Below, one piece after another: positions 8,349 through 61,870 of a DNA stretch of 64,000 nt; within the stretch, counting starts at the first letter, position 1; each line of letters begins with the position of its first letter. The notes beneath the pieces were generated by a model. It saw only the letters and a program-made list of their open reading frames with translations. It was not told the origin of the DNA and searched no databases. Where the stretch lies: positions 1,254,151 to 1,318,150 of the forward strand of contig NZ_JAPNJW010000002.1 in the NCBI RefSeq assembly GCF_026626745.1, written 5' to 3'. Made by a program: the position numbers and the translations under genes. Source of the DNA: Nannocystis sp. RBIL2 (lineage in GTDB: Bacteria; Myxococcota_A; Polyangia; Nannocystales; Nannocystaceae).

Positions 8349-8430
8349 GCATGTCTGCACGGACATGCCCGAAGAGACATGCTCTTCTCACCATGTTCTT
8401 CGCAACATGCCGCGAAGGACATGTCCGCTC
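8349..8430. repeat. tandem array (about 6 units, 13-15 bp period) of GRCATGYCC palindromic elements directly after the UGPase stop
   Basis: catgtctgcac ggacatgcccgaag agacatgctcttc tcaccatgttcttc gcaacatgccgcgaag gacatgtccgctc; read directly. Confidence 0.8.
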
Positions 8431-8866
8431 GCGTCCGCCGCCGCCCCGGAGACGTCCGCCGCGCCGCCCATCGCCGCGCACCGACGAGCGCCGGATAAGT
8501 CTCCAGGAGGTCCGAGCGATGGGCGGCCGGCCCCGGCCGTCCATCGCTCGGAGAGCCCTCCCCGCCCCACGCCCTTCCCGACACCGGAGCCCACGACCGG
8601 CGCTCGGGCCACCCACGAGGCTGGCCGTGCAGCGGTCGGGGACGCGGGTCGGCGCCCATCCGCAGCGAGATGCGCCCGACGAAGGAAGGTGCATCCGCGA
8701 GGACTGGGCGCCGGCCCGCGTCCCCGACCGCCCGCGAGGCGGCCTCGGCAGTTCGCGAACCAGACCCCGAAGCAACCGCAACGAACCCCCGAAGCAAGGC
8801 CGCCCGCCCGAGGTCGAGCGTCCCCAGGCTCCCCGCGAGCGCCGACGCTGCTATAAAGCGCGCCAC

Positions 8867-10456
8867 ATGGCCGACGCACTCGACCACTATCTCACCTGGC
8901 GCCTTTACCGTGCCGAACTCGACATCGAGCTCGACTTCGCCGACGCCCAGCTCGACGAGCCCGCGCTGACCGCCAGCGCCCCGCGCCTCGAGGCCGCGCT
9001 GGACGCCCTCCACCGGATCGAGGGCGGCGCCGTCGCCAACGCCGACGAGGGCCGCATGGTCGGGCACTACTGGCTGCGCGACCCGGAGCGCGCCCCCGAT
9101 CCCGCGATCACCCAGGCCATCCACGACAGCTGGCGGCAGATCGAAGCCTTCGCCGCCGGCGTGCGCGGCGGCCAGATCCTCGCCGACGACGGCCGGCCGT
9201 TCACCGGCGCCATCCTCGTCGGGATCGGCGGCAGCGCTCTCGGCCCGCTGCTGCTCGAGGCCGCCCTGACCGCGCGAGACAGCGGCCCCGGCTTCAGCCT
9301 GCGCGTCCTCGACAACACCGACCCCGCCGGCATCGCCGACCTGCTCGCAGAGACAGGTACGCTCGCGCAGACCTTGATCCTCGTCGTCTCCAAGTCGGGC
9401 TCCACCGTCGAGACGCGCAACGGCATGCTCGAGCTGCGGGCCGCCTGTGCCCGTCAGGCGATCGAGTTCCCCAAGCGGGCGATCGCCATCACCCTCGAGG
9501 GCAGCACGCTCGATCAGCTGGCGCAGCGCGAGGGCTGGCTGGCGCGCTTCCCGATGTGGGACTGGGTCGGCGGGCGCACCAGCGTGCTCTCGCCGGTCGG
9601 CCTGTTGCCGGCCGCCCTGCTCGGCCACGACTGGCGCGGCCTCCTGCGCGGCGCCGCGGCGATGGACCAGTGGGGTCGCGTGCGGCCGGCGCGGCGCAAC
9701 CCGGCCGCCCTGCTCGCCTGGCTGTGGCACCAGCAGGGCTCGGGACATGGCCTTCGGGACATGGTCATTTTGCCATATAAGGATCGCCTGTCGCTGCTGT
9801 CGCGCTACCTGCAGCAGCTCGTGATGGAGTCGCTCGGCAAGCGGCTCGACCGCCAGGGCCGCGAGGTGTGGCAGGGGCTCGCGGTCTACGGCAACAAGGG
9901 CTCGACCGACCAGCACGCCTACGTGCAGCAGCTGCGCGACGGCCTGCACAACTTCTTCGCGGTGTTCGTGCGGGTGCTCCGCGACCTCGACGGCCAGGTC
10001 ACCGGCCCGGGCATGGTCGAGGTCGAGCCGCAGGTCAGCTCGGGCGACTGCCTCGACGGCTTCTACCAGGGCACCCGCGCCGCGCTCGCCGAGCGCGGAC
10101 GGGCCAGCGCGACGATCGTCCTGCGCCAGGTCGACGCCGCCGCCGTCGGCGCCCTGATCGCGCTGTTCGAGCGCGCCGTCGGGATCTACGCCGAGCTCAT
10201 CGACGTCAACGCCTACCACCAACCGGGCGTCGAGGCCGGCAAGCAGGCCGCGCAGGGCGTGCTCACGCTGCAGGCCGCGGTGCTCGCCGCGCTCCCGGGC
10301 GGCTCCGGAGGCAAGACCGCGCGCGAGCTCGCCGAGTCGCTCGGCGCCGACCCCGTGGCCGTGTGGCAGGTGCTGCGCCACCTCGCCAGCAACGGCCGCG
10401 TGAGCGTCGACAGCCTCGTCGATCCGGCGGCTGCACAGTTCGCGCGCGCGACTTGA
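8867..10456 (+). CDS. pgi: glucose-6-phosphate isomerase
   Basis: ORF 8351..10456 trimmed to in-frame ATG at 8867 (MADALDHYLTWRLY...); ILVGIGGSALGP, VVSKSGST motifs of PGI; upstream part is R/P-rich and overlaps the repeat array. Confidence 0.85.
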   Translation: MADALDHYLTWRLYRAELDIELDFADAQLDEPALTASAPRLEAALDALHRIEGGAVANADEGRMVGHYWLRDPERAPDPAITQAIHDSWRQIEAFAAGVRGGQILADDGRPFTGAILVGIGGSALGPLLLEAALTARDSGPGFSLRVLDNTDPAGIADLLAETGTLAQTLILVVSKSGSTVETRNGMLELRAACARQAIEFPKRAIAITLEGSTLDQLAQREGWLARFPMWDWVGGRTSVLSPVGLLPAALLGHDWRGLLRGAAAMDQWGRVRPARRNPAALLAWLWHQQGSGHGLRDMVILPYKDRLSLLSRYLQQLVMESLGKRLDRQGREVWQGLAVYGNKGSTDQHAYVQQLRDGLHNFFAVFVRVLRDLDGQVTGPGMVEVEPQVSSGDCLDGFYQGTRAALAERGRASATIVLRQVDAAAVGALIALFERAVGIYAELIDVNAYHQPGVEAGKQAAQGVLTLQAAVLAALPGGSGGKTARELAESLGADPVAVWQVLRHLASNGRVSVDSLVDPAAAQFARAT

Positions 10457-10500
10457 CGCGCGAGACGTCGCGGGCGAAGGGCGAGTATCCTGCCGCGCCC

Positions 10501-11916
10501 ATGGCCTCGGTCCCCGGACTCCGCGCGCTCATCACCCTCGCCTGGCCGATCGTGCTCGCACGCTCGGCGCAGTCGGTGATCAGCTTCAGCGACGCGGCGA
10601 TGGTCGCCCCGCTCGGCGACGACGCGCTCGCGGCCGCGACCACGGGCGCCATGAACGCGCTGGGGATCCTCGTGCTGCCGATGGGCATCACGTTCATCGT
10701 CCAGAGCTACGCGGCCCAGCTCGCCGGCCGGGGCGACCTCGCCAGCGCGCGCCGCTACGCCTGGTACGGCCTGTGCCTGTCCGCCCTGGCGTTGCTCGCC
10801 ACCATCGTCGCAATCCCGGCGATAGGCCCGCTGCTGTCGCTGACCGGCCACGAGCCGGCGGTGCGCGAGGTGATGGCCGAGTACATGGCGATCCGCATGC
10901 TCAGCACCGGCGTCGTCGTCGGCACCGAGGCGCTCGGCAACTGGTTCGCCGGCCTCGGCGACACCCGGGTGTCGATGCGCGCCAGCCTGGTCGCGATGGT
11001 CGTCAACATCGGCCTCAACTGGGTCCTGATCTACGGCAACCTCGGCGCCCCCGCGCTCGGCGTCCAGGGGGCCGCGTGGGCCAGCGTGTTCGCCAGCGTG
11101 GCCGGCTTCGCAGTGTGCTGCCACGCCTTCTGGCGCGCGCGCGGCCGGCGGGCGATCGACCCGGCGACGCTCGGCCCCGTCGAGCACCCGGTACCTGACC
11201 TTCCGGACAGCTCGGATGGCCGCCTCAACCTGCGCGAGTTCTCGCGGATGATGCGGTTCGGCCTGCCGAACGGCCTCAACTGGTTCCTCGAGTTCGCGGC
11301 CTTCCTGATCTTCATCAACCTCGTGGTCGCCGAGCTCGGGACCGTCGCGGTCGCGGCGCTGATGGCCGTGGTGGCCGTCAACTCCGTCTCGTTCATGCCC
11401 GCCTTCGGCCTCGGCTCGGCCGGCGCGGTCCTGGTCGGCCAGGCGATCGGCGCCGGCCGCCACGACCACGTGCCGCGGATCGTGGTGCGCACCTTCTCGG
11501 TCGCCGCCGTCTGGCAAGGCCTGGTCGGGCTGCTCTACTTCACGTTCCCGGTGCCGCTGATGATGATCTTCGCCCGCGACGAGATCGAGACGTCCGGCGA
11601 GGTCGTGAACCTCGGCGCCCAGCTGCTGGCGATCAGCGCGGTGTGGCAGCTGCTCGACGCCACCGTGATCACTATCAACGAGGCGCTGCGCGCCGCCGGC
11701 GACACCGCCTGGCCGCTGATCCTCCGGATCTCGCTCGCCTGGGTGATCTGGCTGCCCCTGGCCTGGCTGACCGTGTTCGTCTGGGACGGCGGCGCGGTCG
11801 CGGCGACGTGGAGCATGTGCGTGTACATGGTGTTCCTGGCCCTGGCGATGGTGCTCCGCTTCCGCACCGGCGCCTGGCGCCGCATCGACCTCACCGGCCG
11901 CGGCGCGACCGGCTGA
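10501..11916 (+). CDS. MATE family multidrug efflux transporter
   Basis: 12-TM-like hydrophobic profile, MATE-like N-terminus (LAWPIVLARSAQSVISFSDAAMVAPLG); ORF 9868..11916 trimmed to ATG 10501, upstream part is R-rich and overlaps pgi. Confidence 0.8.
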   Translation: MASVPGLRALITLAWPIVLARSAQSVISFSDAAMVAPLGDDALAAATTGAMNALGILVLPMGITFIVQSYAAQLAGRGDLASARRYAWYGLCLSALALLATIVAIPAIGPLLSLTGHEPAVREVMAEYMAIRMLSTGVVVGTEALGNWFAGLGDTRVSMRASLVAMVVNIGLNWVLIYGNLGAPALGVQGAAWASVFASVAGFAVCCHAFWRARGRRAIDPATLGPVEHPVPDLPDSSDGRLNLREFSRMMRFGLPNGLNWFLEFAAFLIFINLVVAELGTVAVAALMAVVAVNSVSFMPAFGLGSAGAVLVGQAIGAGRHDHVPRIVVRTFSVAAVWQGLVGLLYFTFPVPLMMIFARDEIETSGEVVNLGAQLLAISAVWQLLDATVITINEALRAAGDTAWPLILRISLAWVIWLPLAWLTVFVWDGGAVAATWSMCVYMVFLALAMVLRFRTGAWRRIDLTGRGATG

Positions 11917-11918: not shown

Positions 11919-11980
11919 GAGCATGCCCTCAAGGGCATGTCCTCGAGGGCATGCTCTTCAGGACATGTCCGTCAGTGGCA
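11919..11980. repeat. tandem array (4 units) of GRCATGYCC elements filling the convergent gap between the MATE gene and the DUF1963 gene
   Basis: gagcatgccctcaag ggcatgtcctcgag ggcatgctcttcag gacatgtccgtcag. Confidence 0.8.
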
Positions 11981-14530: not shown

Positions 14531-14557
14531 GGATGTCCCGAGGGACCTGTCCCGAAG
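14531..14557. repeat. two-unit palindromic element (ggatgtcccgagg gacctgtcccgaag)
   Basis: same family as the other arrays; between meaB start and small gene stop. Confidence 0.6.
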
Positions 14558-16874: not shown

Positions 16875-17474
16875 GTGTTATGGTGCGCGCCGATGGCGTT
16901 TTGGTCCCGCAAGGAGCGACCCGCACCGTGTCCGAGCTGCGACGCGGCGCTGGACATCGGCCTCGTCAAGGACGGGCAACCGACGTGCCCGGCGTGCGGG
17001 CAAGCGCTGGTGCCGGTGCGCGTCGCCGGCTTCTGGCGTCGCCTCGCCGCCGCGGTGGTCGACGCCGCGATCCTGCTCGTCACCGCCGGGCCGCTGCATC
17101 TCGGGCTGCAGCGCGTGATCGGCGATGCCAGCCCGGTGCGCGGCGCCTTCTCGTGGGCCGGCCTGCTCCAGCTCTTGACCGTCGAGCCGCTCGAGATCCT
17201 GGTGTGGCTGGCGCCGCTCCTGGTGATGGTCGCGTTCTACTTCGTGCTCTTCATCGCCCTGTCCGGAAGGACACCCGGGCAGAAGCTCACCGGGATCCGC
17301 GTGGTCCACCGCGCCGGCGGCAAGGTCGGTCCGGTGCGCGCGACGGTGCGTTTCGCGGGCACCGCCGTCGGCCTGGTACCCGGCGGCCTCGGCTCGCTAT
17401 GGATGGCCTTCGACCGCGAGAAGCGGGCCTTCCACGACTACCTGACAGGCACCTACGTCGTGAGGGAACAGTGA
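16875..17474 (+). CDS. RDD family membrane protein with N-terminal zinc-ribbon (CPSC...CPAC)
   Basis: GTG 16875 with GGAGG 9 nt upstream (alt ATG 16893); RDD motif region RFAGTAVGLVPGGLGSLWMAFDREKRAFHDYLTGTYVV. Confidence 0.7.
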   Translation: MLWCAPMAFWSRKERPAPCPSCDAALDIGLVKDGQPTCPACGQALVPVRVAGFWRRLAAAVVDAAILLVTAGPLHLGLQRVIGDASPVRGAFSWAGLLQLLTVEPLEILVWLAPLLVMVAFYFVLFIALSGRTPGQKLTGIRVVHRAGGKVGPVRATVRFAGTAVGLVPGGLGSLWMAFDREKRAFHDYLTGTYVVREQ

Positions 17475-20400
17475 GCCTCCTCCTGCGCCACCTCGAAGCC
17501 AACGGCCCGCTCTCGCGCGCCGATCTCGAGGCCGCGACCCGGCGGCAGCAGCTGGCCGGCGGCAGCCTCGACACCGCGATCCTCGAGCTCGGGCTGATGA
17601 CCCCGCTGCAGCTCGACGCCCTGCTGCAGAGCGCCTGCGGCCTCCCCGGCGCGCCGGTGCGGCTGCTCGAGCGCGGGCCGACCCGTCCCTGGGAACATGT
17701 CCCGAGAGACCTGGTCGACATCGGCTGGGCCATGCCGCTCGCGCAGGAGGACGGCCGGCTGATCGTCGCCGTCCACCCCGACCTGCCCGACGCCAAGCTC
17801 GGCCAGCTCTACCGCATGGTCCGCGGCTTCTACCCGGTCGTCGCGCCCGAGTGCTGCCTGGCCAAGATCGCCGCCGAGCGCACCGGCTCGATCCTCGCCC
17901 CGCGCTACGCGCTGATCCTGCTCGACTACCTCGAGGCGCTGCGCACCGCCTCGATCACCATCAGCCTGATGCCGGGCGCCGCCGAGCCGCGTCCGAGCGA
18001 AGCGGCTGTCCCTGCGGACAGTCGGGCGGAAGACGCACCTGTCCCAACGGACAGGCAGACGACGGAGGTCCGCGCCGAGGCAGCTGTCCCTGGGGACAGG
18101 CCGACATCCGAGGCGCGCGAGGGGGCACCTGTCCCCGCGGACAGGCAACCGGCCGATGCCCGGGGCGCAGATGCAGCTGTCCCTGCGGACAGGTCGCACG
18201 CCGACGCGCGACCGGAGCCGTCCGGCGCAGACACGCCGGTCGACGCTCGCATCGCCGACGCGCCGAGCGCCGGCGATCGCCAGGCGACCAGCTCGGACCC
18301 GAGCCAGGGATCCGACACCCCGGCCCGTCGCACCGAGGCGCCCACCGCCACCCACGGGCTGGAGGTCGAGGCCGGAGGCCCTGCCCTCGATTCGTCGCGG
18401 ACCGGTGGGTCTGCGAGCGACCAGGTCGCCGCTGCTCATGTGGAAGCTCCTGTCCCTGCGGACAGGTCCGCCATCGACGCGAAGGTAGACGGCACCGAGG
18501 CCAGGCCTGCCGCCGCCCCGAGGGCCGACGCCGCGGACGCCACGCAGACCACCCCTGTCGCGGCGGACGGGACGACCGCGGGCGTGCGACCGGTGTCGCT
18601 GGCCGACGCGCTGCTGGCCGACGTACCTGTCCCCTCGGACAGGCAGATGGCCGGCCCGCGCCCGGCGGCGATGTCCGGGCCGAACACCGCGGCGCGCGCG
18701 ACGGGTTCGCCGTCCGGCGCGCCACCGCCGTCGGAGGCCGGCTCGCCGCGGACGGGCACGCCCGACGACGCCGCCGCGACGGCGCCTGTCCCCGGGGACA
18801 GGCCGGGCGACTCGCCCGCACCTGCCCTCAAGGACAGCCGCAACGAGGCGATTGACGCGGACCGAGCTCGCCCGGCGAACGGTTCGACGCTCACCGCGGG
18901 TTCCTCCCCCGCAGCGCCGACTCTCGCCGATTCGCCGACATCCGACTCCGACGCCCGCGCCCACGCGCCTCGCACCTCCGACGAGCTCGCCGCAGACCGT
19001 GCGGCCGCCGCGACCAGCAGTTCCGCGACGACCCCGGCCGCCACACCTGTCCCTCAGGACAGCCGGGCCGCAGCATCGACGCCGCCGAGCGTCAACGCCG
19101 CGCCCGCACCTGTCCCCGCGGACAGCTCCGCTTCAAACGCCTCGGCCCTGCCCTCCGGCCGCGAGCCCGCGCGTGACGCTGCACCTGTCTCTGAGACCAG
19201 GTCGCCCCAGCTCGACACCCCGAGCCACGCCGCTGCGGGGCGCCGGACCGAGACCGCCCCCACGCCTGCCGCCGCGGCGAGCCGCCAGACGGCGGCGTAC
19301 GACTCGCGGGCGCCCGAGCCCGACCCGGCACCCGCCGCCAATCGGCCGCCCTCGACGCGGCCCTCGCCCGTCCCCGTCGCCCCGGACGCCCCGCTCATCG
19401 ACCCCGGCGGCTTCGAGGACGAGAACGCCTCGCTGGCGGCGATGGCCATCGCCCCCGACACGCCGCTCATCATCCTGCCGCCGGCGACCACGCCGCGACC
19501 GGTGACCCCAGCCCTCGGGGTGCCGATCTATTCCGACACCTCGTCTGGCAATTGGGACAGGCGCACCCTCGTCGGCATCCCGGTAGGCGTGGCGCCCGCC
19601 CCCGCCCCCGCCCCCGACAAGCCCGCGGCCGCGCACGGCCCCAGCAACGGCGTCGCTCGCCCCACGGCCGCATCGAGTCCACCTGTCCCTTCGGCCAGCC
19701 CCGCCGAGCCCGCGCCGAGCCCGCCCGTCCCTTCGGCCAGCCCCGCCGAGCCCGCGCCGAGCCCGCCTGTCTCTTCGACCAGCTCCTCGGAGGCCGCGCC
19801 GAGCGCCCCCGAAGCCGCGTCTGACGAGGATCTGGTCGAGTCGTCGACGCGCAAGCCGCCGGCCCTGCCGCAGCCGATGGTCATGACTCTGGCGCAGCGC
19901 CTCGACGCCGCCCGCGCCACTCTGGCCACCGCGCGCGAGCGCGACCGGATCACCGAGGCCCTGGTGCGGGCCGCGAGCCTGATCGCCCCGCGCGTGGCCC
20001 TGTTCGGGGTCAAGCGCGAGGGTCTGCGCGTCCTGGCCGCGCCCGGCAGCGCGCTGCGGATGTCCGAGGGTCTCGTCATCCCGCTGCCCGAGGGCGGCCT
20101 GCTCGATCGCGCAGTGTCGGGCCAGGGTCCGCTGCACCTCCTGATCGAGCCGAGCCTGTCGTTCGCAGTCGGCCAGCCGCTGGGGATCCCCTGCATCTTC
20201 GAGCCCGTGCTCGCCGGCGGCCGCACCGTGCTGATGCTCTACCTCGACCGCTCCGGCGTCGCCTTCGATCCGCGCGAGCGGACCGTCCTGCGCGAGCTGT
20301 GCGACACGGCCCGGCAGAGCCTCGAGGCGCTGCTGCGGCTGCTCGGCTGGGTGGTGCCCGGCGGCACGCCCGGGGCCGGCCCCGCCGACCGCACGCGCCC

Positions 20401-22780
20401 GTCGATCCGGCCGGCGACCCCGATCGTCACCGTCGACGAGGCCGACGCGCCGGCCACGACGCCACCTGTCTCTGCGGACAGCTCCGAAACCGAGCCGCCG
20501 TCCGGCGAGACCTCGGCCGAACCCGACGATTCCGAGCCGCCGCCGACCGCGAGCGGGGCGGCGAGTGAACCTGGCTTCGGGGACAGCAACAGCCTCGCCA
20601 GCCGGCTGCGCAGCCGCGGCAACCGCGGGCGCGCCGTCATCACCCTGAAGAACCCGATCCGCCGCGACGACCCGGCGACCGTGACGCCGCTGCCGGTCCG
20701 CGCCGAGAGCTCCGCGCTCGTGCGGGCCCAGACGCTCGCCGACGAGCCGCCGCCCCCGCCCGTCGACGAGCCGGAGTACGAGGACCTCACCGACGACCCC
20801 GAGGAGCTCGACAGCCCGCCGCCGCGCCGTGACGGCCCCGGCCTCGGCCTCGCGCCGGTCCCGGTGCCTCTCGGCCCCGAGAACGGCCAGGACAGCCCGC
20901 TCGTGGCCCGCTTCGCCGCGATGTTCACCAAGCCGCCGCTGCCGGCGGTGACGATCGACCTGTCCGATCGGCCCAATACCTTCGGACATGCGCGATCGGA
21001 CAGCCCCGAGGCGCCGCCAGCGAGCCCGCAGCCGGAGATGCCGGGCTGGATCGCCACCGCCGAGCCGTCAGGCATCGAGGACCCGCTGCCCGTGGCCGCG
21101 GCGCTGCGCTCGGCCGCGACCGCCGCCGAGGCCCGCGTCGACCACGATCCGGCGGCGACGCTGCCGGGCGCGCCGCGGGTCATGCTCGAGGAGACCACGC
21201 GGGCATCGACGCGCGACGAGTTCGACGAGTGGCCGCGCGCCGCCTCCGACACCCCGACCATCCTCGACCTCTCGCCGCCGCCGACCCACGAGCCGCTGCT
21301 GGTCGAGACCCGCGCCGCGCCCGACGCCAAGACCGTCCTCGACCTCCCGCGGGTCGACTCCCCGGTCCCGCCCGAGACCCTGATCCCCAACCTCGTCGCC
21401 CCGCCCGGCACGCCCGGCGCGGGCCGCCGTCGCCGCGCGAACGAGGCGGCCGAGGACGAGCCGGTATTGGTGATCCCGAAGACGCTGCGGCGCTCGGGCG
21501 GCCTCACCGCCACGCCGCACCCGATGGCCCGTCGCAGCGACCCCGACGAGCTCGAGGGCGGTCCGACGCTGACGATGCCGACCACTCTGATCGGCCCGCG
21601 CAGCGGCCGGCGACGCGGCAAGCACGACCCGCGCCCTGACTCCTCGTCCAGCGCCCTGACCATGCCCCGGCTGGTACGCGAGGCGGAGGCCGACGACGCC
21701 GCGGCCCAGTCGACTGCGAATGGGATCGCTCCTTCGGAACATGCCCCTGAGGACATGTCCCCGGCGACCGGTTCCAAAGCGCAGGTCGACGCGAGCGCGT
21801 CGCCAGCCGGCGCCGCCGAGGCGAGCGGGTCCGTCGCGGCCCCGCCGGCCGACGAGCGCCCTGCGGCCGACGAGCTGTCGAGCGAGGAGCCGGCCGCGGC
21901 CGCCGACGCCGCCCCCGGCGCGGCGCTCGACGACCGCGAGATCGACGCGGTGATCGAGGGCTTTTTGCAGAACCCGGCCGAGTGGACCAGCGTGTCGCGG
22001 CTGCGCGCGCTCGACGAGCGCGGCCTGGCCCGCCTGGCGGCGCGCTTCCCGGGGCCCATCGACCTCGCCAACGCGACCAACTTCCCGCCGCCGAGCGCTC
22101 ACGGCCCGCTGCTGCGCGCGTGCGTCGAGCTCGGCCACGCGGTCAGCCCGCACGTGCTCGCCCTGTTCGCCAGCGCACGGCCGCAGATCCGCTTCTACGC
22201 CGCGTTCCTGTTCCAGGAGCTGCGCGACCCGAAGTGCCTGCGGCCGCTCGGCGAGCTGGCGTTCGACTCCGACCCCGACGTGCGGCTGATCGCCACCCGC
22301 GTGCTCGAGTCCTACAGCCGCGTGCCTGACTTCGCAACGGTGGCCGCGGAGATCCGCGGCGAGCTCGAGAGCTCGGACCGCGACCGCCAGCTGCTCGCCG
22401 TCGAGGCCGCCGGCACCCTGCGCGACACCCTCGCAGTGCCGCGTCTCATCGACTTGCTGGCGGTCCGCGACAAGCACGTCCGCGAGGCCGCGCTCGAGGC
22501 CCTGTGCTCGATCACCGCCAAGCACCACGGCTACCGCGCCCAGCGCTGGCGGGCCTGGTACGCCGAGCACGGCCAGGAGCCGCGCATCGAGTGGGTCATC
22601 GACGGCCTGCGCCACCGCGACGAGGCCGTGCGCCGCTGGGCCGCCGACGAGCTGGCGCGGATCACCGGCCAGCGGATCCCGTTCCCGGCGGAGGGCGACC
22701 GCCGCAGTCGCGAGCTGGCCCTGCGCGCCTGGCAAGCCTGGTGGGACAGCAACCGCGAGGACTTCACCGCCGGTAGCTGA
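17471..22780 (+). CDS. giant multidomain protein (1769 aa): MshEN/T2SSE_N-like N-terminal domain, disordered Pro/Ala/Asp repeat region, GAF-like segment, C-terminal HEAT repeats
   Basis: GTG at 17471 overlaps RDD stop (GTGA) with GAGGGA 4 nt upstream; N-term SLDTAILELGLMTPLQLDALLQ resembles MshEN/GspE-N motif; aa 170-770 low complexity with xxAPVPxDRxx repeats; ITEALVRAASLIAPRVALFGV...MLYLD GAF-like; C-term PRLIDLLAVRDKHVREAALEAL HEAT-type repeats; ORF 16271..22780 upstream portion judged noncoding (overlaps rsmE). Confidence 0.7.
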   Translation: MSLLLRHLEANGPLSRADLEAATRRQQLAGGSLDTAILELGLMTPLQLDALLQSACGLPGAPVRLLERGPTRPWEHVPRDLVDIGWAMPLAQEDGRLIVAVHPDLPDAKLGQLYRMVRGFYPVVAPECCLAKIAAERTGSILAPRYALILLDYLEALRTASITISLMPGAAEPRPSEAAVPADSRAEDAPVPTDRQTTEVRAEAAVPGDRPTSEAREGAPVPADRQPADARGADAAVPADRSHADARPEPSGADTPVDARIADAPSAGDRQATSSDPSQGSDTPARRTEAPTATHGLEVEAGGPALDSSRTGGSASDQVAAAHVEAPVPADRSAIDAKVDGTEARPAAAPRADAADATQTTPVAADGTTAGVRPVSLADALLADVPVPSDRQMAGPRPAAMSGPNTAARATGSPSGAPPPSEAGSPRTGTPDDAAATAPVPGDRPGDSPAPALKDSRNEAIDADRARPANGSTLTAGSSPAAPTLADSPTSDSDARAHAPRTSDELAADRAAAATSSSATTPAATPVPQDSRAAASTPPSVNAAPAPVPADSSASNASALPSGREPARDAAPVSETRSPQLDTPSHAAAGRRTETAPTPAAAASRQTAAYDSRAPEPDPAPAANRPPSTRPSPVPVAPDAPLIDPGGFEDENASLAAMAIAPDTPLIILPPATTPRPVTPALGVPIYSDTSSGNWDRRTLVGIPVGVAPAPAPAPDKPAAAHGPSNGVARPTAASSPPVPSASPAEPAPSPPVPSASPAEPAPSPPVSSTSSSEAAPSAPEAASDEDLVESSTRKPPALPQPMVMTLAQRLDAARATLATARERDRITEALVRAASLIAPRVALFGVKREGLRVLAAPGSALRMSEGLVIPLPEGGLLDRAVSGQGPLHLLIEPSLSFAVGQPLGIPCIFEPVLAGGRTVLMLYLDRSGVAFDPRERTVLRELCDTARQSLEALLRLLGWVVPGGTPGAGPADRTRPSIRPATPIVTVDEADAPATTPPVSADSSETEPPSGETSAEPDDSEPPPTASGAASEPGFGDSNSLASRLRSRGNRGRAVITLKNPIRRDDPATVTPLPVRAESSALVRAQTLADEPPPPPVDEPEYEDLTDDPEELDSPPPRRDGPGLGLAPVPVPLGPENGQDSPLVARFAAMFTKPPLPAVTIDLSDRPNTFGHARSDSPEAPPASPQPEMPGWIATAEPSGIEDPLPVAAALRSAATAAEARVDHDPAATLPGAPRVMLEETTRASTRDEFDEWPRAASDTPTILDLSPPPTHEPLLVETRAAPDAKTVLDLPRVDSPVPPETLIPNLVAPPGTPGAGRRRRANEAAEDEPVLVIPKTLRRSGGLTATPHPMARRSDPDELEGGPTLTMPTTLIGPRSGRRRGKHDPRPDSSSSALTMPRLVREAEADDAAAQSTANGIAPSEHAPEDMSPATGSKAQVDASASPAGAAEASGSVAAPPADERPAADELSSEEPAAAADAAPGAALDDREIDAVIEGFLQNPAEWTSVSRLRALDERGLARLAARFPGPIDLANATNFPPPSAHGPLLRACVELGHAVSPHVLALFASARPQIRFYAAFLFQELRDPKCLRPLGELAFDSDPDVRLIATRVLESYSRVPDFATVAAEIRGELESSDRDRQLLAVEAAGTLRDTLAVPRLIDLLAVRDKHVREAALEALCSITAKHHGYRAQRWRAWYAEHGQEPRIEWVIDGLRHRDEAVRRWAADELARITGQRIPFPAEGDRRSRELALRAWQAWWDSNREDFTAGS
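18006..19783. repeat. 14 or more in-frame copies of the CCTGTCC-N4-GGACAGG palindrome (first five as 39-47 bp tandem units) inside the giant ORF
   Basis: e.g. ctgtccctgcggacag 18006, cctgtcccaacggacagg 18038, ctgtccctggggacagg 18084, cctgtccccgcggacagg 18128, ctgtccctgcggacagg 18177, 18440, 18627, 18784, 19048, 19109, degenerate 19185, 19682, 19727, 19766; further copies 20464 and 21731. Confidence 0.85.
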
Positions 22781-22784: not shown

Positions 22785-22945
22785 CTGCCGCTTCGGGCAT
22801 GTCCTGGGAGACATGCCCGAAGCAGCATGGCGATTCGGGCATGTCCGCCCGGTCATGTCCTTGAGCTCCGCGGCCGACCTCCAGCCGCGCTCGCAGGACG
22901 CGTCAGCATGACCGCTCGGACATGTCTCTTCGACCATGCACGTCG
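22785..22945. repeat. two adjacent tandem arrays (about 8 units) of GRCATGYCC elements immediately after the giant ORF stop
   Basis: cttcgggcatgtcctggga gacatgcccgaag cagcatggcgattcgg gcatgtccgcccg gtcatgtccttgag ... gtcagcatgaccgctcg gacatgtctcttc gaccatgcacgtc. Confidence 0.8.
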
Positions 22946-25078: not shown

Positions 25079-25089
25079 GCCGTTGCCTG

Positions 25090-25112
25090 CGCCTCAGGAC
25101 ATGTCCTGAAGC
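25090..25112. repeat. single GGACATGTCC palindromic element in convergent intergenic gap
   Basis: cctcaggacatgtcctgaag. Confidence 0.6.
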
Positions 25113-25223
25113 GCAGGTTCGATGCCACGCTTGCGGAGGCGATGCGTGCTCGCAACGGGCCGCCCCCGCGGGCTCACCTGGGCACGAGCCCGGCTGTGCC
25201 CCCTCAGCGCGCAGCGGGCACGT

Positions 25224-27623: not shown

Positions 27624-27716
27624 CGCACCCTCCGAAGGCGCGAGCGTAACACGCTGCCCCGACGTCACCGGACGCGCGCTCCCACGCGCGCGAGCGCGGC
27701 GGCGCCGGAGAAACGC

Positions 27717-27737
27717 GACATGTCCTCAGGGACAGCC
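27717..27737. repeat. GACATGTCC-TCAG-GGACAGC composite palindromic element 3' of the sigma-54 activator gene
   Basis: gacatgtcctcagggacagcc. Confidence 0.6.
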
Positions 27738-29206: not shown

Positions 29207-29248
29207 AGGCGGTACCTCCGCGGGGGCTTCGCCTACTCTGCGGGCGGA

Positions 29249-29266
29249 AGATGCGCGGGTGTAATG
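29249..29266. promoter_or_regulatory. near-perfect palindrome TTTGCGCG-N2-CGCGCAAA about 45 nt upstream of the activator gene start; two TGGCACG motifs lie 75-110 nt further (29339, 29357)
   Basis: read directly; candidate operator or terminator hairpin. Confidence 0.3.
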
Positions 29267-29369
29267 CATACTTTGCGCGCTCGCGCAAACCCGCGACCCC
29301 CGCCCACGACGTTTCTCCTATCGTTGCGAGATTTTCATGTCTGGCACGAAAGGCGCACTGGCACGGCGT

Positions 29370-31489: not shown

Positions 31490-31518
31490 GAACCCGAACA
31501 GGGTAGTTTCGATGGCGC

Positions 31519-37662: not shown

Positions 37663-37688
37663 GGGTGGTCTCTCCTGAGGTACTCGGG

Positions 37689-38927: not shown

Positions 38928-38933
38928 GCTTCG

Positions 38934-40781: not shown

Positions 40782-40800
40782 CTCAGACAACAGGATAGCT

Positions 40801-44267: not shown

Positions 44268-44276
44268 CGCTCTCCG

Positions 44277-45686
<1,410 letters not shown>

Positions 45687-45855
45687 GGGCGCTCGAGTCG
45701 AACCCGCGGTGTGCAAGCCGGGGTCCTCGGTGAAAAGCGAATGATTCTAAGGCAACTCCTGGAGCCAGAACGAGGCTGTCACGCGCAATTGTCAGGCCGT
45801 CCGAGGCGGGATGCCAAAATGGCAATCGCGGCCCTCGCGCCCAACTCCCGGCGCC

Positions 45856-49646: not shown

Positions 49647-50375
49647 GTGAGCCGAGGCAAGGGGATGCGGAGCCGTGAGCACGAGTCGTTCCGCCGCGAG
49701 GCGACGTTCCACGCGGCGGCTCACGCGCTGACGGAGACCGTGCTCGAGGCAGACCGCGAGGCGACCGCCCGCCGCGAAGAGGTGGCGCCAGGGGTGCATG
49801 TGCTCCACGGGGTGATGTCGCCGAAGGAGTGCAAGCGATTGATCGCGGCGGCGGAGGCGATCGGCTTCACTCACGCGGGCCTGGCGATCGGCGACGACAC
49901 GTACCGGGTCAACCTGGCGGCCCGCAACAACCTGCGGGTGGTGTTCGACGCGCCGGAGCTGGCCGAGGGGCTGTGGCAGCGGATCCGCGGGATCGCCGAT
50001 CCACAGCACGAGGGCGCGCCGCTGCGCGGGCTCAACTTCCGCTTCCGCGTGTACCGCTACGAGGTCGGGATGCGCTTCTCGCCTCACGTCGACGTCCGCA
50101 CTGCGGTGCCGCTCGGCGAGACGCGCGAGTCGCTGGTCATCTTTCTCAACGCCGAGTTCGAGGGCGGCGCGACCCGCTTTTTCGAGGAGAAAGACAAGTC
50201 GCAGCGCCGCGGCCAGGGTCGCGGGCGCAAGTTCGACAACAAGGTGAGGTTCGCGCTGAAGCCCCCCGTCGGCGGCGCGGTGGTGTTCGACCACCTGCTG
50301 CTCCACGAGGGCGCAGAGGTGACGGCGGGCGTGAAGTATGCGGTGCGCACCGACGTGATCTACGGGCCGCGCTGA
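49647..50375 (+). CDS. 2OG-Fe(II) oxygenase superfamily protein (prolyl-4-hydroxylase-like)
   Basis: GTG 49647 with AAGGAGG 4 nt upstream; HxD...H triad (SPHVDVRT ... LLLHEGAEV). Confidence 0.7.
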   Translation: MSRGKGMRSREHESFRREATFHAAAHALTETVLEADREATARREEVAPGVHVLHGVMSPKECKRLIAAAEAIGFTHAGLAIGDDTYRVNLAARNNLRVVFDAPELAEGLWQRIRGIADPQHEGAPLRGLNFRFRVYRYEVGMRFSPHVDVRTAVPLGETRESLVIFLNAEFEGGATRFFEEKDKSQRRGQGRGRKFDNKVRFALKPPVGGAVVFDHLLLHEGAEVTAGVKYAVRTDVIYGPR

Positions 50376-50400
50376 CTGGCGCGGAGGTGGCGAGGAAGAT

Positions 50401-50510
50401 CGCCTGTCTTTGAGGACAGGCGATTCCGCAACGCCGGTCGAACAGTGACCTGTCCCCGGGGACATCCACGCCGATCGAGATCGTGGATGTCCGCAAGGAC
50501 AGGTGCCCGC
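50401..50510. repeat. composite inverted-repeat structure between convergent genes: hairpin cgcctgtc-tttgag-gacaggcg plus about 60-bp nested palindrome acctgtccccggggacatccacgccgatcgagatcgtggatgtccgcaaggacaggt
   Basis: read directly; built from the same TGTCC/GGACA half-sites as the repeat family. Confidence 0.75.
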
Positions 50511-51959
50511 TCAGGGCGTGTAGCTCGGCAGTTCGACCACGTAGGCGTCGACGGTCTCGCCGCCGCCCCAGTCGCTGCCGAACAGGATCCGCGTGCCGCT
50601 CGGGCTCGGGACGGCGGTCGGCGCGGCCCAGTACGGCTCGCCGAGGTTGGTGTTGTTCTGCCCCCAGCTGCGATGCCGGCCCACGCGGCACACCTGGCCG
50701 GTGTTGGTGTCGGCCAGCAGCAGCTCTTGGTCGAGGAGCCCCTGCCCGGAGGGATCGCCGATGGTCGACACGACGACCCAGCCGGGCCGGTGAATCGCCA
50801 GCGCCGAGATGTGGCCCGCCGGCGGATACGGATAGCCCGTCTTCGGGCCGATGATCACTCGCGAGGTCGCGTCGGTGAGGTCCCAGGTCACGAGGGCGCC
50901 GATGTCGTCGTTGCCGCCGGGGCCCGGGTCGTAGACGAAGCCGTTCCAGGTGTCGTGGCCGTTCGCCAGCATGCCGAGCGAGGCGTGACCCCAAGGCTCG
51001 AGCAGATCGAGGGTGTGCAGCACGTCGAGCGCAGGATCGACGACCCGGCCGGTGTCGCTCAAATACGCCAGCGAGCCGCTGGGCCCGATCTGGGCCGGGT
51101 TCTCGTCGAGCGTGACCTGCCCGAGCACCGCGTCGGTGGCGACGTCGTAGACGAACACCTGATCGTCGCAGACGAGGCCGAAGCGGTTCGAATCCCACGA
51201 CGAGAACATCGGGTCGCTGCCGCCGCTGACCGGACCGCCGCAGAAGTCGAAAGTGTGCACGGGCTCCTCGACCTCGGTGTCGACGTCGAAGCGCACCAGC
51301 GTCTTGCCGTGCATGAACATCACGATGCTCGGGTCGGCTCCGTGCCAGTAGAACTGCTCGAGGTCCGGCGGATCGATCGGCAGTTTTTTCAGAAATTCGT
51401 AGGTCTTGCCGTCGTAGAGCAGGTGGCCCTCCGTCACGTCGTAGAGGATGAGGCGCGTCTCGTCCGTGTTCCACGCGGCGATCGTGCTGTAGGCGGGCTT
51501 GATCACCGGATTTGCGCCCATCGCAGTGACGCCGCTGATCCGCCGGATCGTGGTGCCGAACTCCGCGTCGACCACGGTCGCGCCCACCTCGGGCTTGGCG
51601 AGCGGGGTCATCGGCCGGTCCATCAGATCCTGCACCAGCCCGGCGCACAGGTCGGGCGGGTCGACCGGTTCGCCGGTGGTGTCGCCCTCGGTCGTCGTCG
51701 CCGCAGTCGGGTCGCTGGTGGCCTCGGTCGTCGTCCCCGGTCCGGCGGTCGTCGGCGTGGGATCGTCGGTGCCGACAGACGAGCTCGCTGTCGTCGAGGT
51801 GGTCGTGAGGCCGCTGTCGTCGGTGGTCGAGGCTGTCGTCGAGGTGGTGGTCGTCTGCGGCCCGTCGGTCGTCGAGCCGGCGTCGTCGTTGCTGCCGCCG
51901 CCGCCGCAACCGCAGGCGACGAGGAACGCGAAGGTCCATCGATGCGAAGCGAATGTCAT
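50511..51959 (-). CDS. secreted lipoprotein with Thr-rich linker (hypothetical)
   Basis: signal peptide with lipobox FLVACGC, TTTTSTTASTTDD low-complexity linker, globular C-domain. Confidence 0.65.
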   Translation of the reverse strand: MTFASHRWTFAFLVACGCGGGGSNDDAGSTTDGPQTTTTSTTASTTDDSGLTTTSTTASSSVGTDDPTPTTAGPGTTTEATSDPTAATTTEGDTTGEPVDPPDLCAGLVQDLMDRPMTPLAKPEVGATVVDAEFGTTIRRISGVTAMGANPVIKPAYSTIAAWNTDETRLILYDVTEGHLLYDGKTYEFLKKLPIDPPDLEQFYWHGADPSIVMFMHGKTLVRFDVDTEVEEPVHTFDFCGGPVSGGSDPMFSSWDSNRFGLVCDDQVFVYDVATDAVLGQVTLDENPAQIGPSGSLAYLSDTGRVVDPALDVLHTLDLLEPWGHASLGMLANGHDTWNGFVYDPGPGGNDDIGALVTWDLTDATSRVIIGPKTGYPYPPAGHISALAIHRPGWVVVSTIGDPSGQGLLDQELLLADTNTGQVCRVGRHRSWGQNNTNLGEPYWAAPTAVPSPSGTRILFGSDWGGGETVDAYVVELPSYTP

Positions 51960-52281
51960 GGGTCGACGCTAACACGCCGATCGGCCGCGGGAGCACAGGC
52001 GAATGCGCGCCCTGCGGCCCGTAGTCGCCGTTCTGCAGCGGTTTACGGGGTCCGCGAGCCTCACGTCGCGGGCGATCAGGCGCAGTCGAACATGGCTTGA
52101 AGGACAGATGCTGAGAATCGCAGCGCGCGGGTCATCGATGGCAGAGCAATGTCTCGATAGACATGTCGTAATGGCCAGCCGTGAGCGGGCGCGCTCGCTC
52201 GCGGCGGCACGGCCCTCCCGGGAGGCGCGTCCGCGTCTGCGCTGGTTGCCGAGGTCGCCCTGCCGCGTGTACGATCGCGCG

Positions 52282-59678: not shown

Positions 59679-59913
59679 ACGAGGGCGAGGGCCGTGAACG
59701 GGCGAAAAGACGGGCTTCGTCGCCTTCTACAGGTGTTCGGCCCCTGGTGCCGGGCGGCGAATCATCGGCCGGTCGAGCTCGGCGCGGGGCACGGTCGGCC
59801 GCGCCGCGGAAGGTTCGCGCCTGGAGGTGCGGCGGCCAGCGGACGGTGAGACGCGAGCTGGCCGAGGGGACAGGTCGCCTAGGACATTCGCAGCCCGCAC
59901 CCTCCCGCTGTCC

Positions 59914-60888
59914 TCACGGACATGTCGCGGGGGCCAGCTTGCAATCGGAGAACCAGGCGGCCACGTCGCGGCACTGCGGGTCGGCCGGGTCGGCGGCGGC
60001 GCAGGCGAGGAAGCCGGCGCGGTCGCGCAGGGAGCACAGGCGCGGCAGCTCCCACTTGCGGTCGCGGCAGCTGGTGTCGCGCGGGTCGCAGGTGCTGCGC
60101 ATCCAGGTAGCGGTGCCGTCGCCGCGGAGGAACACGCGGTCGTCGATGTTGCGGTTGCCGACGAGGCTCTCGACGCGGAGGCTGGCGGCGGCCTCGGCGG
60201 CCAGGGCCCGGTAGAGACAGGCGTCGCCGGCGACCTCGTCGTCGCACGGGCGCGGCGAGGCGCAGGCGTCGAGCAGCGCGAGGGCGATGTCACCCGGGCA
60301 GCGGCCAGCCGCGCACACGCAGGCGCACTCCTCGGGATCCTGCGGTCCGAGGCCGCACTCGGTCCAGCCTGCAGGATGCTCGGGGCCGGGGAAGTCGCCG
60401 GCCTTGCGACCGACGCGGCGGACGTGGAAGACGTCGCCGACCCGCTTGTAGAAGGTGGAGTCGTAGTCCTCGTCGCCGGTCGAGGCGCTGGCGGTGGCGC
60501 AGAAACCCGCGGCCTCGAAGGCGCAGCTCGAGCGATCGGCGAGGCGCTCGGTGGCGAACCAGATGCAACCGGCGGCGTCGCAGTCGGCCTCGACCGCGTG
60601 CGACTCGCACGGCTCGACGGGCGCGGGCGGGAGCTCGGGCGCGAGGTCGGGCAACGGCGTGACGAGAGCGCCCGTGCCGGTGACCGGCATGCTGGTGGCG
60701 GCGTCGCCGGTGCTCGTGCTGCCGGCGGTACCGGTGGTGCTCCCCTCGCCGGCGGTCGCCACGGTGCTGCCCTCGCTGTCGGTGCCGCGCGAAGCCGCGT
60801 CGGACCGCCCGGGGCTACACCCAGTCGCAACCAGCCACAAGAAGAGAGAGGCGACGCCTGCCAGGCGCGCGCCAAGACCTAACCGCAC
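59914..60888 (-). CDS. secreted lipoprotein, Cys-rich C-terminal domain (hypothetical)
   Basis: GTG 60888 giving VRLGLGARLAGVASLFLWLVATGCS lipoprotein signal; S/T/G-rich linker; 20+ cysteines in C-domain; upstream 190 aa of ORF 59914..61476 is R-rich and judged noncoding. Confidence 0.55.
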   Translation of the reverse strand: MRLGLGARLAGVASLFLWLVATGCSPGRSDAASRGTDSEGSTVATAGEGSTTGTAGSTSTGDAATSMPVTGTGALVTPLPDLAPELPPAPVEPCESHAVEADCDAAGCIWFATERLADRSSCAFEAAGFCATASASTGDEDYDSTFYKRVGDVFHVRRVGRKAGDFPGPEHPAGWTECGLGPQDPEECACVCAAGRCPGDIALALLDACASPRPCDDEVAGDACLYRALAAEAAASLRVESLVGNRNIDDRVFLRGDGTATWMRSTCDPRDTSCRDRKWELPRLCSLRDRAGFLACAAADPADPQCRDVAAWFSDCKLAPATCP

Positions 60889-61770
60889 GGTCTCATGTTG
60901 CCAGAGCACGCCGAGGAGATCAAGGAATCGCCGCGCTGGCGGACCTGGCGCGACGCGACGATCGCAACTTTGGGCTGCCCGGTGATGTGGGCGAGCATCG
61001 CCGGTGTAAGAAGGTCGCTGCGACGAATGGGTGATGCGCGACACAGGCCCGGCGCGATGAAGGATGAAGAAGGAGTGCCGGCCTGAAGTCGGCGCACCGA
61101 TCGCTCCCCTGCCGTCGCGGGGGAGAGGCCCACGCCGAGGCGCTTTCGCGGGCCCGCGGCGCCCGGGCGCTGGAGGTGCGAGTCGATGCTCGGCTCGTCG
61201 GAGCGCGAGTCGTCGGTCGCGAGGATGACCCGCGCTCGCGGCTGCACGGTCGATGACGTCGGTCGGCGCGCCGCCTGCCCTTCCGGCTCGGTCGTCGCGC
61301 GCCCGTTCCTGGCGCTCGCGCGGGTCGATCCTTGCGGTGACATCGGTGTCCGTTTCGGGGACGCGCCTCGATGGTGAGGCGAACTGAAACGCGTTGTTCA
61401 ATCGCGCGGCGGCGCAGGCGACGTCGCCCGGTCCGCGCTGGAGCCGATGGGCGAAGCGCAGTGCGTCGATCGGCATGACAGTGGGGTGCTGCGGCGGGAG
61501 TACGACTGTCCGGTCCAGGGGGGCTGGAGCCGGAGCGCGACCGTCGATGCGACGCGCGAGTCAGCGCCCGGCACGACAGCGTCGCCGCAGGGTCGGGATC
61601 GGCTGGCGTGGGCCGAGGTCGGGGCGCGGTCCCTGCCCCGTTCGCGTCGAAACGCCGCGCGGCCGAGCCAAGCCCTGGTCCGCGCCGCGCGAGGGCACTC
61701 CCGAGGCACGCGGCCTCCTGCTCGCCCAGCCCGCTGGCGGCTGCGGCGGGGAGTTCGGCGCGCAATCACA

Positions 61771-61870
61771 TGTCCGAAAGAACATATCTCCTGCGACATG
61801 TCTTATCGACAATGCTCCATGGAGCATGTCTTTTCGCCAATGCCCGAAAGAGCATGTCTCTTCGCACACG
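61771..61870. repeat. tandem array (7 units, 13-15 bp period) of GRCATGYCY elements 70 nt downstream of the hydrolase gene
   Basis: cacatgtccgaaag aacatatctcctgc gacatgtcttatc gacaatgctccatg gagcatgtcttttc gccaatgcccgaaag agcatgtctcttc. Confidence 0.8.

Follow-up and report, generated by a model that had tools for sequence, protein, structure and literature searches.

A family of short palindromes is dispersed through a 64,000-nucleotide (nt) stretch of DNA from Nannocystis sp. RBIL2, here called the window, from whose first letter coordinates are counted. Copies stand in tandem arrays at the ends of genes and also within coding sequences. The family is built on a 10-bp palindrome, GGACA|TGTCC, which together with a 4-nt spacer forms a lattice with a period of exactly 14 bp; its two pentamers meet head to head without a gap and tail to tail across the spacer. 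The most frequent spacer is CCGG, and the flanks are CA..TG or CC..GG. A preliminary description of the window had listed a number of arrays, all of which were recovered where it had placed them, but it gave them a period of 13-15 bp and divided them between two motifs.

Spacing statistics define the unit. Distances between CATG words in the window peak at 14, 28, 42 and 56 bp (18, 13, 7 and 6 pairs, respectively), with about 0-1 pair at any other distance. Start-to-start offsets from TGTCC to GGACA are 9 bp (N4) 19 times, 23 bp three times and 37 bp once, with no other value, and the 5-bp offset from GGACA to TGTCC that constitutes GGACATGTCC is found four times. The two motifs that had been told apart, GGACATGTCC and CCTGTCC-N4-GGACAGG, are therefore two phases of one lattice. 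In dinucleotide shuffles of the window, 1.81 +/- 1.5 matches to TGTCC-N4-GGACA with at most one mismatch are expected and 49 are found, and CATG-N10-CATG occurs 18 times for an expected 0.45. Third-order Markov simulations give 3.5 matches to GGACATGTCC at one mismatch or fewer, compared with 26 in the window, and leave the N3, N5 and reversed-order controls at expectation. As a single word, TGTCC/GGACA is the most over-represented pentamer of the window (z 7.4, maximal-order Markov model), and this excess lies wholly in paired contexts (85 paired occurrences, 5 expected; 81 solo, 94 expected). Because solo pentamers show no excess, the unit is a palindrome at fixed spacing: what is over-represented is the palindromic pair and not a single word. 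The single dispersed palindromic family of the preliminary description is thus borne out.

It might be supposed that such a pattern is due to chance or is an artefact of a peptide repeat or of low-complexity sequence, as about 5 of the 75 matches in coding sequences (at most one mismatch) are expected by chance and twelve copies fall in one repetitive gene. The 27-fold and 40-fold excesses over shuffles, the flat spacing controls, the occurrence of the perfect double unit GGACATGTCC-N4-GGACATGTCC in 91 independent metagenome contigs where fewer than one would be expected, and the fixation of rare codons at synonymous sites of the peptide repeat leave this explanation with practically no probability.

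Copies of the family sit directly 3' of stop codons, chiefly between convergent genes, and divergent (promoter) regions are avoided. Gene boundaries were drawn with a codon-bias caller trained on the window and checked against Pfam and the gene calls of related loci; starts are approximate. Four of the five convergent junctions in the window are occupied, and at the fifth, a 21-nt gap, a unit lies 68 nt inside the upstream coding sequence. None of the six divergent junctions carries a copy at one mismatch or fewer, and in four of five same-strand gaps the upstream stop is nearer to the copies than the following start is. In a non-redundant 555 kb of Nannocystis-type sequence, convergent gaps hold 6.9 clusters per kb, tandem gaps 1.4, divergent gaps 0.44 and coding sequence 0.32; where regions with a search seed are set aside, the elements occupy 18 of 47 convergent, 24 of 253 tandem and 6 of 73 divergent regions. 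The median distance from stop to array is 14 nt (69% within 30 nt, 83% within 70 nt), and between tandem genes the median distance from the array to the following start is 156 nt. Convergent gaps are filled from stop to stop at 11919-11971 and in three metagenome loci (L090, L101 and L129), and units abut or overlap stop codons at 11971/11972 and 59909-59927 as well as in the same three loci. The placement after stops seen at the outset, which is not random with respect to gene ends, therefore holds, but that picture had missed more than 20 intragenic copies: 41 of the 56 clusters in the window lie in coding sequence. The units at 35378 and 57377, which include the start codon of the next gene, are counted among the intragenic copies.

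The distribution of the lattice across genomes, sampled at about 0.1 Mb for any single Nannocystis genome, points to a lineage-specific family. With about 95% nucleotide identity, GCA_049060185.1 and GCA_002343915.1 are the assemblies closest to the window; a syntenic 21 kb of the former (L081) is 95% identical in DNA. The MeaB of the window is 93% identical to that of N. radixulma (L001) and 99% to that of N. pusilla (P0001), and its GspE is 96% identical to that of N. exedens (P0121), with 95.6% DNA identity to the N. exedens-like locus L174. These matches bear out the myxobacterial origin that the preliminary description had assumed. The lattice is found in L001 and L081 and is absent from two other Nannocystaceae metagenome-assembled genomes, one from Myxococcota and 75 unrelated loci, a total of 1.17 Mb that holds seven CATG-14-CATG pairs, two hairpins and no GGACATGTCC. 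At the collinear type II secretion locus, hairpins and palindromes (at most one mismatch) number 13 and 5 in the window, 10 and 4 in L174, 4 and 1 in L176 (GspE identity 88%), 2 and 2 in L178 (81%), and 2 and 0 in L180 (78%), the last being about the chance level. Lattice counts thus drop with phylogenetic distance, and as each genome was counted independently at this locus, the difference is one of lineage and not of ascertainment. The family belongs to the Nannocystis pusilla/exedens/radixulma clade, is dense in pusilla/exedens-like genomes and is thinner in more distant Nannocystis. Within the sampled Nannocystis sequence it is genome- and lineage-wide, as the preliminary description had suggested, and the 91 metagenome contigs extend this; of 80 contigs fetched, 75 have a GC content of 66-77%, and many carry further copies.

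Some of the metagenome contigs show other arrangements, including at least five perfect tandem GGACATGTCC-tcct units up to the contig end (L159, 2155-2219), a composite repeat of about 37 bp that includes a double unit (L096, 1587-1750), and a 9-bp repeat, (CATGTCGGG)n, that passes into the lattice (L149, 7476-7540). In viral contigs, one perfect double unit and 21 matches to a 16-base pattern were found, close to the estimated chance level, and there is thus no evidence that phages of a Nannocystis host use the motif. Three prophage-like contigs from high-GC isolates share a non-coding region (L192, 1-140; L195, 13529-13850; L204, 360-700) in which 15-20 GGGGACA/TGTCCCC repeats surround a CT-rich core of lower GC content. 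These repeats include GGACATGTCC-ccgg-GGACA and look like an iteron or operator region on the same pentamer.

Copies of the palindromic family in the window, between or at the ends of genes (first twelve rows) and within genes, with predicted folds and the state of the site in related loci (L numbers)
Coordinates	Strand	Element	Context	Fold (kcal/mol; z)	Related loci
8348-8427		array of six CATG-centred units (CATG at 8350, 8364, 8378, 8392, 8406, 8420; exact 14-bp phase)	starts 27 nt past UDP-glucose pyrophosphorylase stop (8320-8322), ~440 nt before PGI start	-41.3; -3.9	kept with changes in L081; absent from N. radixulma L001
11919-11971		four-unit array (CATG at 11922, 11936, 11950, 11964); nested hairpin	entire gap between convergent stops of MatE (11914-11916, +) and a DUF1963 gene (11972-11974, -)	-37.7; -5.1	unrelated hairpin of similar length in N. 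radixulma (57 vs 56 nt)
14534-14557		degenerate pair, two TGTCC half-sites 14 bp apart	upstream of MeaB		conserved in L081
22795-22860		five-unit array (CATG at 22798, 22812, 22826, 22840, 22854)	convergent gap; starts 14 nt past HEAT-repeat gene stop (22778-22780)	-51.9; -5.6	loop alone differs in L081 (TGGG to TCGA); seven-unit array in N. radixulma, unalignable with that of the window
22907-22938		three more units in 14-bp phase (CATG at 22907, 22921, 22935)	same convergent gap as 22795-22860	no better than shuffles; 0.15	
25084-25119		single GGACATGTCC, flanks lengthening the palindrome to ~16 bp per arm	between convergent genes, 18 nt past stop at 25078	-26.5; -4.4	
27716-27734		GACATGTCC-TCAG-GGACA	53 nt downstream of sigma-54 response-regulator stop (27788, -)		
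35378-35407		TGTCC-TGGA-GGACATG and second CATG 14 bp on	fills 26-nt gap between two type II secretion pseudopilin genes; includes ATG of the downstream one (35392)		hairpin retained in L174 with altered loop; more distant genomes do not align there
50401-50505		composite: CGCCTGTCT-TTGA-GGACAGGCG hairpin and REPIN-like inverted pair ACCTGTCC-N4-GGACATCCACG ... CGTGGATGTCC-N4-GGACAGGT	between convergent genes, stops 50375 and 50511	-60.3; -5.4	different units (CATGTCC-N7-CATG) after orthologous 2OG-oxygenase stop in L174
57377-57392		TGTCT-CTTG-GGACATG	directly after AMP-binding gene stop (57405, -); includes ATG of phaC-like open reading frame (57391)		
59859-59927		two units, 59859-59872 and 59909-59927	at or just past stop of gene 59914-60762 (-), upstream of phaR		
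61769-61870		degenerate array, alternating CATGTC and CAATGC units; TRF period 28 bp (2 x 14), 2.5 copies	70 nt downstream of hydrolase gene stop (61940, -)	weak; -2.1	
6536-6549		single perfect TGTCC-CCGA-GGACA preceded by CATG	in epimerase gene		one mismatch in L001 and L082
9743-9765		two GGACATG units 14 bp apart	in PGI coding sequence		conserved in L081, L001 and L082
17260-17273		single perfect hairpin unit	in RDD-family gene		identical in L081 and L001; degenerate in L082
18007-19124	+	ten perfect and several near-perfect (C/G)CTGTCCC-NNN-GGACAG(G/C) units	disordered region of HEAT-repeat protein		
20467-20480	+	TGTCT-CTGC-GGACA	HEAT-repeat gene, same frame as 18007-19124 (P-V-S-A-D-S)		
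21740-21763		two-unit array CATGCCC-CTGA-GGACATGTCC	in HEAT-repeat gene		both units kept in L081 and L001 orthologues, T/C variants swapped
45579-45597		TGTCC-GAAC-GGACATG	5' part of sigma-54 response-regulator gene (44277-45686, -)		
45991-46385	-	five to six near-perfect units	disordered C-terminal tail of N6/N4 DNA methyltransferase (45856-47469, -)		tail missing from 253-aa L176 orthologue; unalignable with L174
55736-55749		perfect unit	in coding sequence, 68 nt before stop at 55817; gene convergent with phaC, 21-nt gap		

The composite element at 50401-50505 is carried, together with a 482-aa open reading frame that has no Pfam match (50511-51959, -), on a segment of about 1.9 kb (50371-52265) that is absent from the otherwise collinear locus L174. 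A variant palindrome, TGTCT-CGAT-AGACA, stands at 52150, on the far side of this segment.

Folding in silico shows the main arrays to be strongly hairpin-forming, with z from -3.9 to -5.6 relative to dinucleotide shuffles. Flanks can extend the palindrome: 17% of perfect double units are extended by at least four complementary flank pairs, compared with 0.3% of shifted controls. The double units with extended flanks span 24-60 bp, and the longest extensions reach 13 and 18 bp. Half-sites that depart from the consensus can still be complementary to their pairing partner, as with GAGCA/TGCTC and GGGCA/TGCCC at 11919-11971. The family is a genus-restricted set of palindromes with half-sites and spacing under constraint, from which very stable hairpins can form.

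These features, and above all the placement after stops, are tentatively explained by a bidirectional gene-end element that would act both as a barrier to read-through and as protection of 3' ends, a reading to which a probability of about 45% is assigned. In the transcript, the elements would form hairpins that halt or weaken read-through and shield the upstream mRNA from 3' exonucleases, a dual role like that of E. coli REP and one proposed likewise for the mycobacterial TRIT. A sequence-specific factor would recognize the core and the spacing, such a reader being implied by the invariance of the core and of N4. New copies would come from local duplications, tandem or inverted, and from point mutations favored by selection or drive; cut-and-paste transposition would play no part. 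Consistent with a gene-end role, canonical terminators are all but absent from 20 kb of the window, and at the 11919 junction of N. radixulma the array has an unrelated hairpin in its place. Canonical intrinsic terminators share with the arrays a GC-rich hairpin right after stops that is bidirectional between convergent genes; the arrays differ in having no U-tract and in a shared conserved core instead of arbitrary stems.

The closest parallel to such an element is TRIT of Mycobacterium (Gardner et al. 2011), which is genus-restricted, palindromic, bidirectional and stop-codon-proximal, and for which an unknown factor binding the motif was inferred by its authors (PMC3152330). Both families combine conserved sequence with conserved structure, are coupled tightly to stops even to the point of overlapping the end of a coding sequence, and belong to high-GC lineages poor in canonical terminators. 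The description of TRIT nonetheless sets it apart, as its sequence is unrelated and Nannocystis belongs to another phylum, the Myxococcota; the core GGACATGTCC was arrived at independently of it. TRIT is also a single longer hairpin in 147 copies, whereas the Nannocystis family forms multi-unit 14-bp arrays, reaches well into coding sequences and is several-fold denser, with roughly one cluster for every kb of the window. The family is placed and built much like REP/BIME and especially like TRIT, and it is a member of neither. A scan of the window at Rfam gathering thresholds returned no match and no description of this repeat family was found in the searchable literature, in keeping with the initial impression that it belonged to no nameable family.

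A number of observations weigh against a gene-end role at the RNA level. The arrays have no U-tracts, with at most three T in the 15 nt after them and at most four A in the 15 nt before, and between 8000 and 27900 only one hairpin with a T-tract was found, compared with 2.9 expected by chance, and none at arrays. A report on mycobacterial RNA polymerase describes the U-tract as needed for intrinsic termination (PMC3993855), and hairpins alone may therefore not terminate. Variants that preserve pairing through G.U on the sense strand are not enriched in 3' regions (20 vs 15), a bias that is reversed in coding sequences (8 vs 27), and sense-strand GNRA/UNCG loops are not favored (6 vs 9 in tandem contexts). 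Family-wide, complementary doubles are only weakly enriched (5 T-A closing pairs, about 1.8 expected), and the commonest spacer, CCGG, produces a perfect palindrome without a loop. Strict N4 spacing and a strict core are not required by a hairpin as such, and a 3'-end function leaves unexplained the intragenic copies made at the cost of amino acid replacements. Two matters of method belong here as well: gene boundaries rest on a purpose-made codon-bias caller, and the metagenome loci were picked through the perfect double unit, so that seed-free regions were used where this mattered. From the terminator or RNA-stability role first proposed, the REP-like placement stands; the role itself had been drawn from placement only, two RNA signatures are null and U-tracts are lacking.

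The missing RNA-specific signatures and the weak family-wide covariation are the main weakness of the gene-end reading, and they make a duplex-DNA model a serious, if unlikely, rival. The arrays would then be binding sites at which a dimeric or oligomeric protein, contacting GGACA pentamers as TGTCC-N4-GGACA (the 5-N4-5 layout of the FNR type) or as GGACA|TGTCC, coats gene ends at 14-bp spacing. Such sites might serve as a transcriptional roadblock, as topology (gyrase-type) sites or in chromosome organization, with the hairpin a by-product of dyad symmetry. The strictness of core and N4 alongside a freely varying spacer, full strand symmetry with no wobble or tetraloop bias, and the avoidance of promoter regions would all follow; conserved half-sites with variable spacers are predicted equally well, and in-place intragenic sites would be expected of a system in which sites are useful at any position that tolerates them. 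The iteron-like GGGGACA/TGTCCCC clusters of the prophage-like contigs hint at a GGACA-binding protein in high-GC hosts. Less easily accommodated are the poor half-sites that remain complementary to their partners (8348-8427 and 11919-11971), the arbitrary outer stems that extend the palindrome in 17% of double units, and a median distance of 14 nt from the stop where promoter avoidance alone would suffice; in addition, no candidate protein was identified.

Comparison with related genomes illustrates which parts of the units are maintained. Relative to the 95%-identical L081, 3% of stem positions are substituted (6/200), compared with 11.5% in flanks (46/400) and 15% in loops (12/80). In one case, at 18040, the substitution is a compensatory double, C-G to T-A, that converts TGTCC-caac-GGACA to TGTCT-catc-AGACA. 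Relative to N. radixulma, at 87% identity, arrays turn over: that at 8348 is absent, that at 11919 replaced and that at 22795 unalignable. Half-sites are thus conserved while spacers and flanks drift, and arrays turn over between species.

Copies within genes offer a further view of how the motif is made. The HEAT-repeat protein (17474-22780, +; about 1768 aa) has a conserved N-terminal domain of about 170 aa and C-terminal HEAT/Arm repeats, with a proline/alanine-rich disordered region of about 1300 aa in the middle. The units at 18007-19124 all share one frame, CCT GTC CCN NNG GAC AGG, that encodes P/A-V-P-x-D-R/S; the first codon always ends in T and the last always begins with AG, so that the units rely throughout on the rare codons CCT, GCT and AGG. 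A single but different frame is shared by the units at 45991-46385, where xTG TCC NNN NGG ACA encodes L/M-S-x-x-T. That each gene keeps to a single frame points to duplication within the gene, the DNA core remaining constant, and a 45-bp TRF repeat at 18035-18193 supports such duplication. Palindromic repeats that lie in frame in protein-coding genes and add peptide segments are known as Rickettsia palindromic elements (RPE; PMC3733652). RPE are inserted elements of about 100-150 bp with a CGTC tag, whereas the Nannocystis units measure 14-18 bp and come about by substitution or intragenic duplication.

The two genes have other repeats and features of their own. A 42-bp tandem repeat (19674-19811, 3.3 copies) lies in the HEAT-repeat gene apart from the PVPxDR units, and the disordered part of the protein can hardly be aligned with N. 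radixulma, in which the reading frame is still open. The methyltransferase has a DPPY motif and Arg/Ala-rich disordered tails at both ends; no restriction-enzyme domain was detected in the genes next to it. In L174 the methyltransferase tail contains tandem repeats of about 97 nt that include GGACAGG.

Elsewhere in conserved genes, copies appear without any change in length. The site at 45579 offers a graded series, from ggtgc-GCAC-gacga in L180 and gatcc-GCAC-gtgca in L178 through TGTCC-gaac-GGCCA in L176 to TGTCC-N4-GGACA in L174 and the window, so that the motif was gained stepwise by point substitution, with amino acid replacements. In-place gains of the same kind are found at 41524, 48707 and 30630, and at 11196 the motif has decayed in the window. 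Over 42 kb aligned between the 95%-identical strains, no clean gain or loss of a unit was found among indels of at least 7 nt, nor any target-site duplication, such as the terminal repeats of an insertion sequence or of a miniature inverted-repeat transposable element (MITE) might have left. In intergenic DNA, copies originate through local duplication or replacement, and in genes through point substitution. Substitution in place, which differs from what a REP or MITE model entails, suggests selection or drive of a sequence-specific kind.

The repeats might instead be mobile DNA of the REP/REPIN or MITE type, non-autonomous elements copied by a transposase, HUH/RAYT-like or other, whose gene lies elsewhere in the 12-Mb genome, and retained at gene ends because they do no harm there. 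Like REP/BIME of Enterobacteria, Pseudomonas and Stenotrophomonas, the family consists of short, species-specific palindromes in high copy number, with alternately inverted units in tandem clusters after genes, enrichment between convergent genes and a copy content that varies between related genomes. A model REP has been shown to be both terminator and mRNA stabilizer, and REP are enriched between convergent genes (bioRxiv 10.64898/2026.03.23.713779); intragenic REPs, moreover, are known in other species (PMC3733652). Lineage-specific expansion, arrays that one species has at an orthologous site and another lacks or has replaced, the REPIN-like inverted pair at 50447-50505 and double units seemingly set into the loop of a longer hairpin would likewise fit mobility. 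The REP/BIME unit, however, is an imperfect palindrome of 20-40 bp with variable linkers, compared with a 10-bp palindrome or 14-18-bp hairpin on a rigid lattice. The GTAG head of classical REPs is missing, as had been noted at the outset: no GTAG, CTAC or CGTC occurs within 8 nt of the 19 perfect hairpins, and GACG only twice. A tblastn search with E. coli RayT (NC_000913) in 835 kb of sequence of the Nannocystis type, which samples under about 1% of any one genome, gave a best E-value of 0.43; no transposase gene was found in the window, and no gene family recurs beside 69 seeds, the clusters being orthologous housekeeping neighbors. Many copies lie in coding sequences by point substitution without length change, the 42-kb alignment shows neither insertion polymorphism, unit-sized indels nor target-site duplications, and spacers are the most variable part, which is unexpected for recent copies of a master element. 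Mobility of this type is accordingly quite improbable as the explanation of the family.

Molecular drive without local function might equally be considered, through a bias like that of uptake signals (DUS/USS) or one linked to repair or methylation (HIP1-like), either of which would move sequences towards the motif at any position able to bear it. In Neisseria and Pasteurellaceae, DUS/USS form inverted pairs downstream of genes that make terminator-like hairpins, and in cyanobacteria HIP1 is a lineage-specific perfect palindrome that coding sequences carry in spite of their codon preference. The Nannocystis motif shares with DUS/USS the accumulation in place, by point mutation, of a short lineage-specific motif that extends to tolerant parts of coding sequences, and with HIP1 a short, lineage-specific palindrome in coding sequences against codon preference. 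In-place convergence on the motif in conserved genes at the expense of codon usage and amino acids, enrichment in disordered segments of proteins, specificity at the genus level, a core that includes CATG/ACATGT and the orphan-looking N6/N4 DNA methyltransferase of the window all speak for drive. Yet DUS/USS are asymmetric single words, over-represented alone, and solo pentamers in the window fall short of expectation. HIP1 is an 8-mer spread across coding and non-coding DNA, with no gene-end concentration, arrays or hairpin partners, whereas density here is about 20-fold higher in convergent gaps than in coding sequences. Tandem 14-bp arrays are foreign to both, and we know of no link between Nannocystis and competence. 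A function-free drive is hence a doubtful account of the whole; it and pure transposition each explain part, but not all, of the data.

Other known systems were compared and set aside. A CRISPR array has repeats of 23-50 bp and unique spacers of similar length, as opposed to 10-bp repeats and 4-nt spacers. Operators of transcription factors do not account for gene-end copies in the thousands, and on this ground the p53 half-site GGACATGTCC, the FNR-type 5-N4-5 operator, the NifA site TGT-N10-ACA, the IS50 end CTGTCTCTT and the PadR operator ATGT-N8-ACAT were rejected as explanations; the last of these fits only one phase of the lattice and not CCTGTCC-N4-GGACAGG.

A broader proposal, which must be regarded as speculative, is that Nannocystis may use a factor-dependent gene-end code, reading GGACA/TGTCC palindromes on the 14-bp lattice, as its main means of ending or insulating transcription units in a genome that lacks canonical terminators, with selection or drive writing the motif into coding sequences. 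If so, the reader would act on RNA or DNA hairpins or, as a roadblock, on duplex DNA, and the writing of the motif would override codon usage and amino acids and would seed disordered repeats such as PVPxDR and L/M-S-x-x-T. Such a code would give the unexplained TRIT system an independent counterpart. How the ends of transcription units are marked in high-GC bacteria that lack hairpin-plus-U terminators would then be illustrated by a second system beside the so far isolated mycobacterial one, denser and more regular than TRIT and with a defined 10-bp core that could be used as bait for the recognizing factor. A DNA-level motif that is made inside conserved genes by point mutation, and that shapes disordered protein repeats, also bears on the origins of REP-, DUS- and HIP-like sequences. 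In practical terms, the motif could flag gene ends in the annotation of Nannocystis genomes and metagenome bins and could supply candidate insulator or terminator parts for the engineering of Nannocystis that produce natural products.

Several further observations concern the window and its relatives. A segment of about 300 bp upstream of PGI (8457-8762) has two inverted copies in N. radixulma L001, at 4508-4811 and 9571-9871 (in window orientation), that bracket the PGI-MatE-DUF1963 block. In the gene calls of L081, PGI and MatE are fused (1015 aa), the epimerase is split in three and the HEAT-repeat gene is truncated, which suggests indel errors in the GCA_049060185.1 assembly. The window begins with a fatty-acid-type synthase cluster (KR, KS, FabA, AT and an aminotransferase). 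A complete type II secretion operon (secretin, GspE, GspF, pseudopilins including gspJ, GspK and a PilM-like protein) occupies 28934-45746 on the minus strand between two sigma-54 response regulators, and polyhydroxyalkanoate genes (phaC-like and phaR) follow further along; all of these clusters are ordinary housekeeping context.

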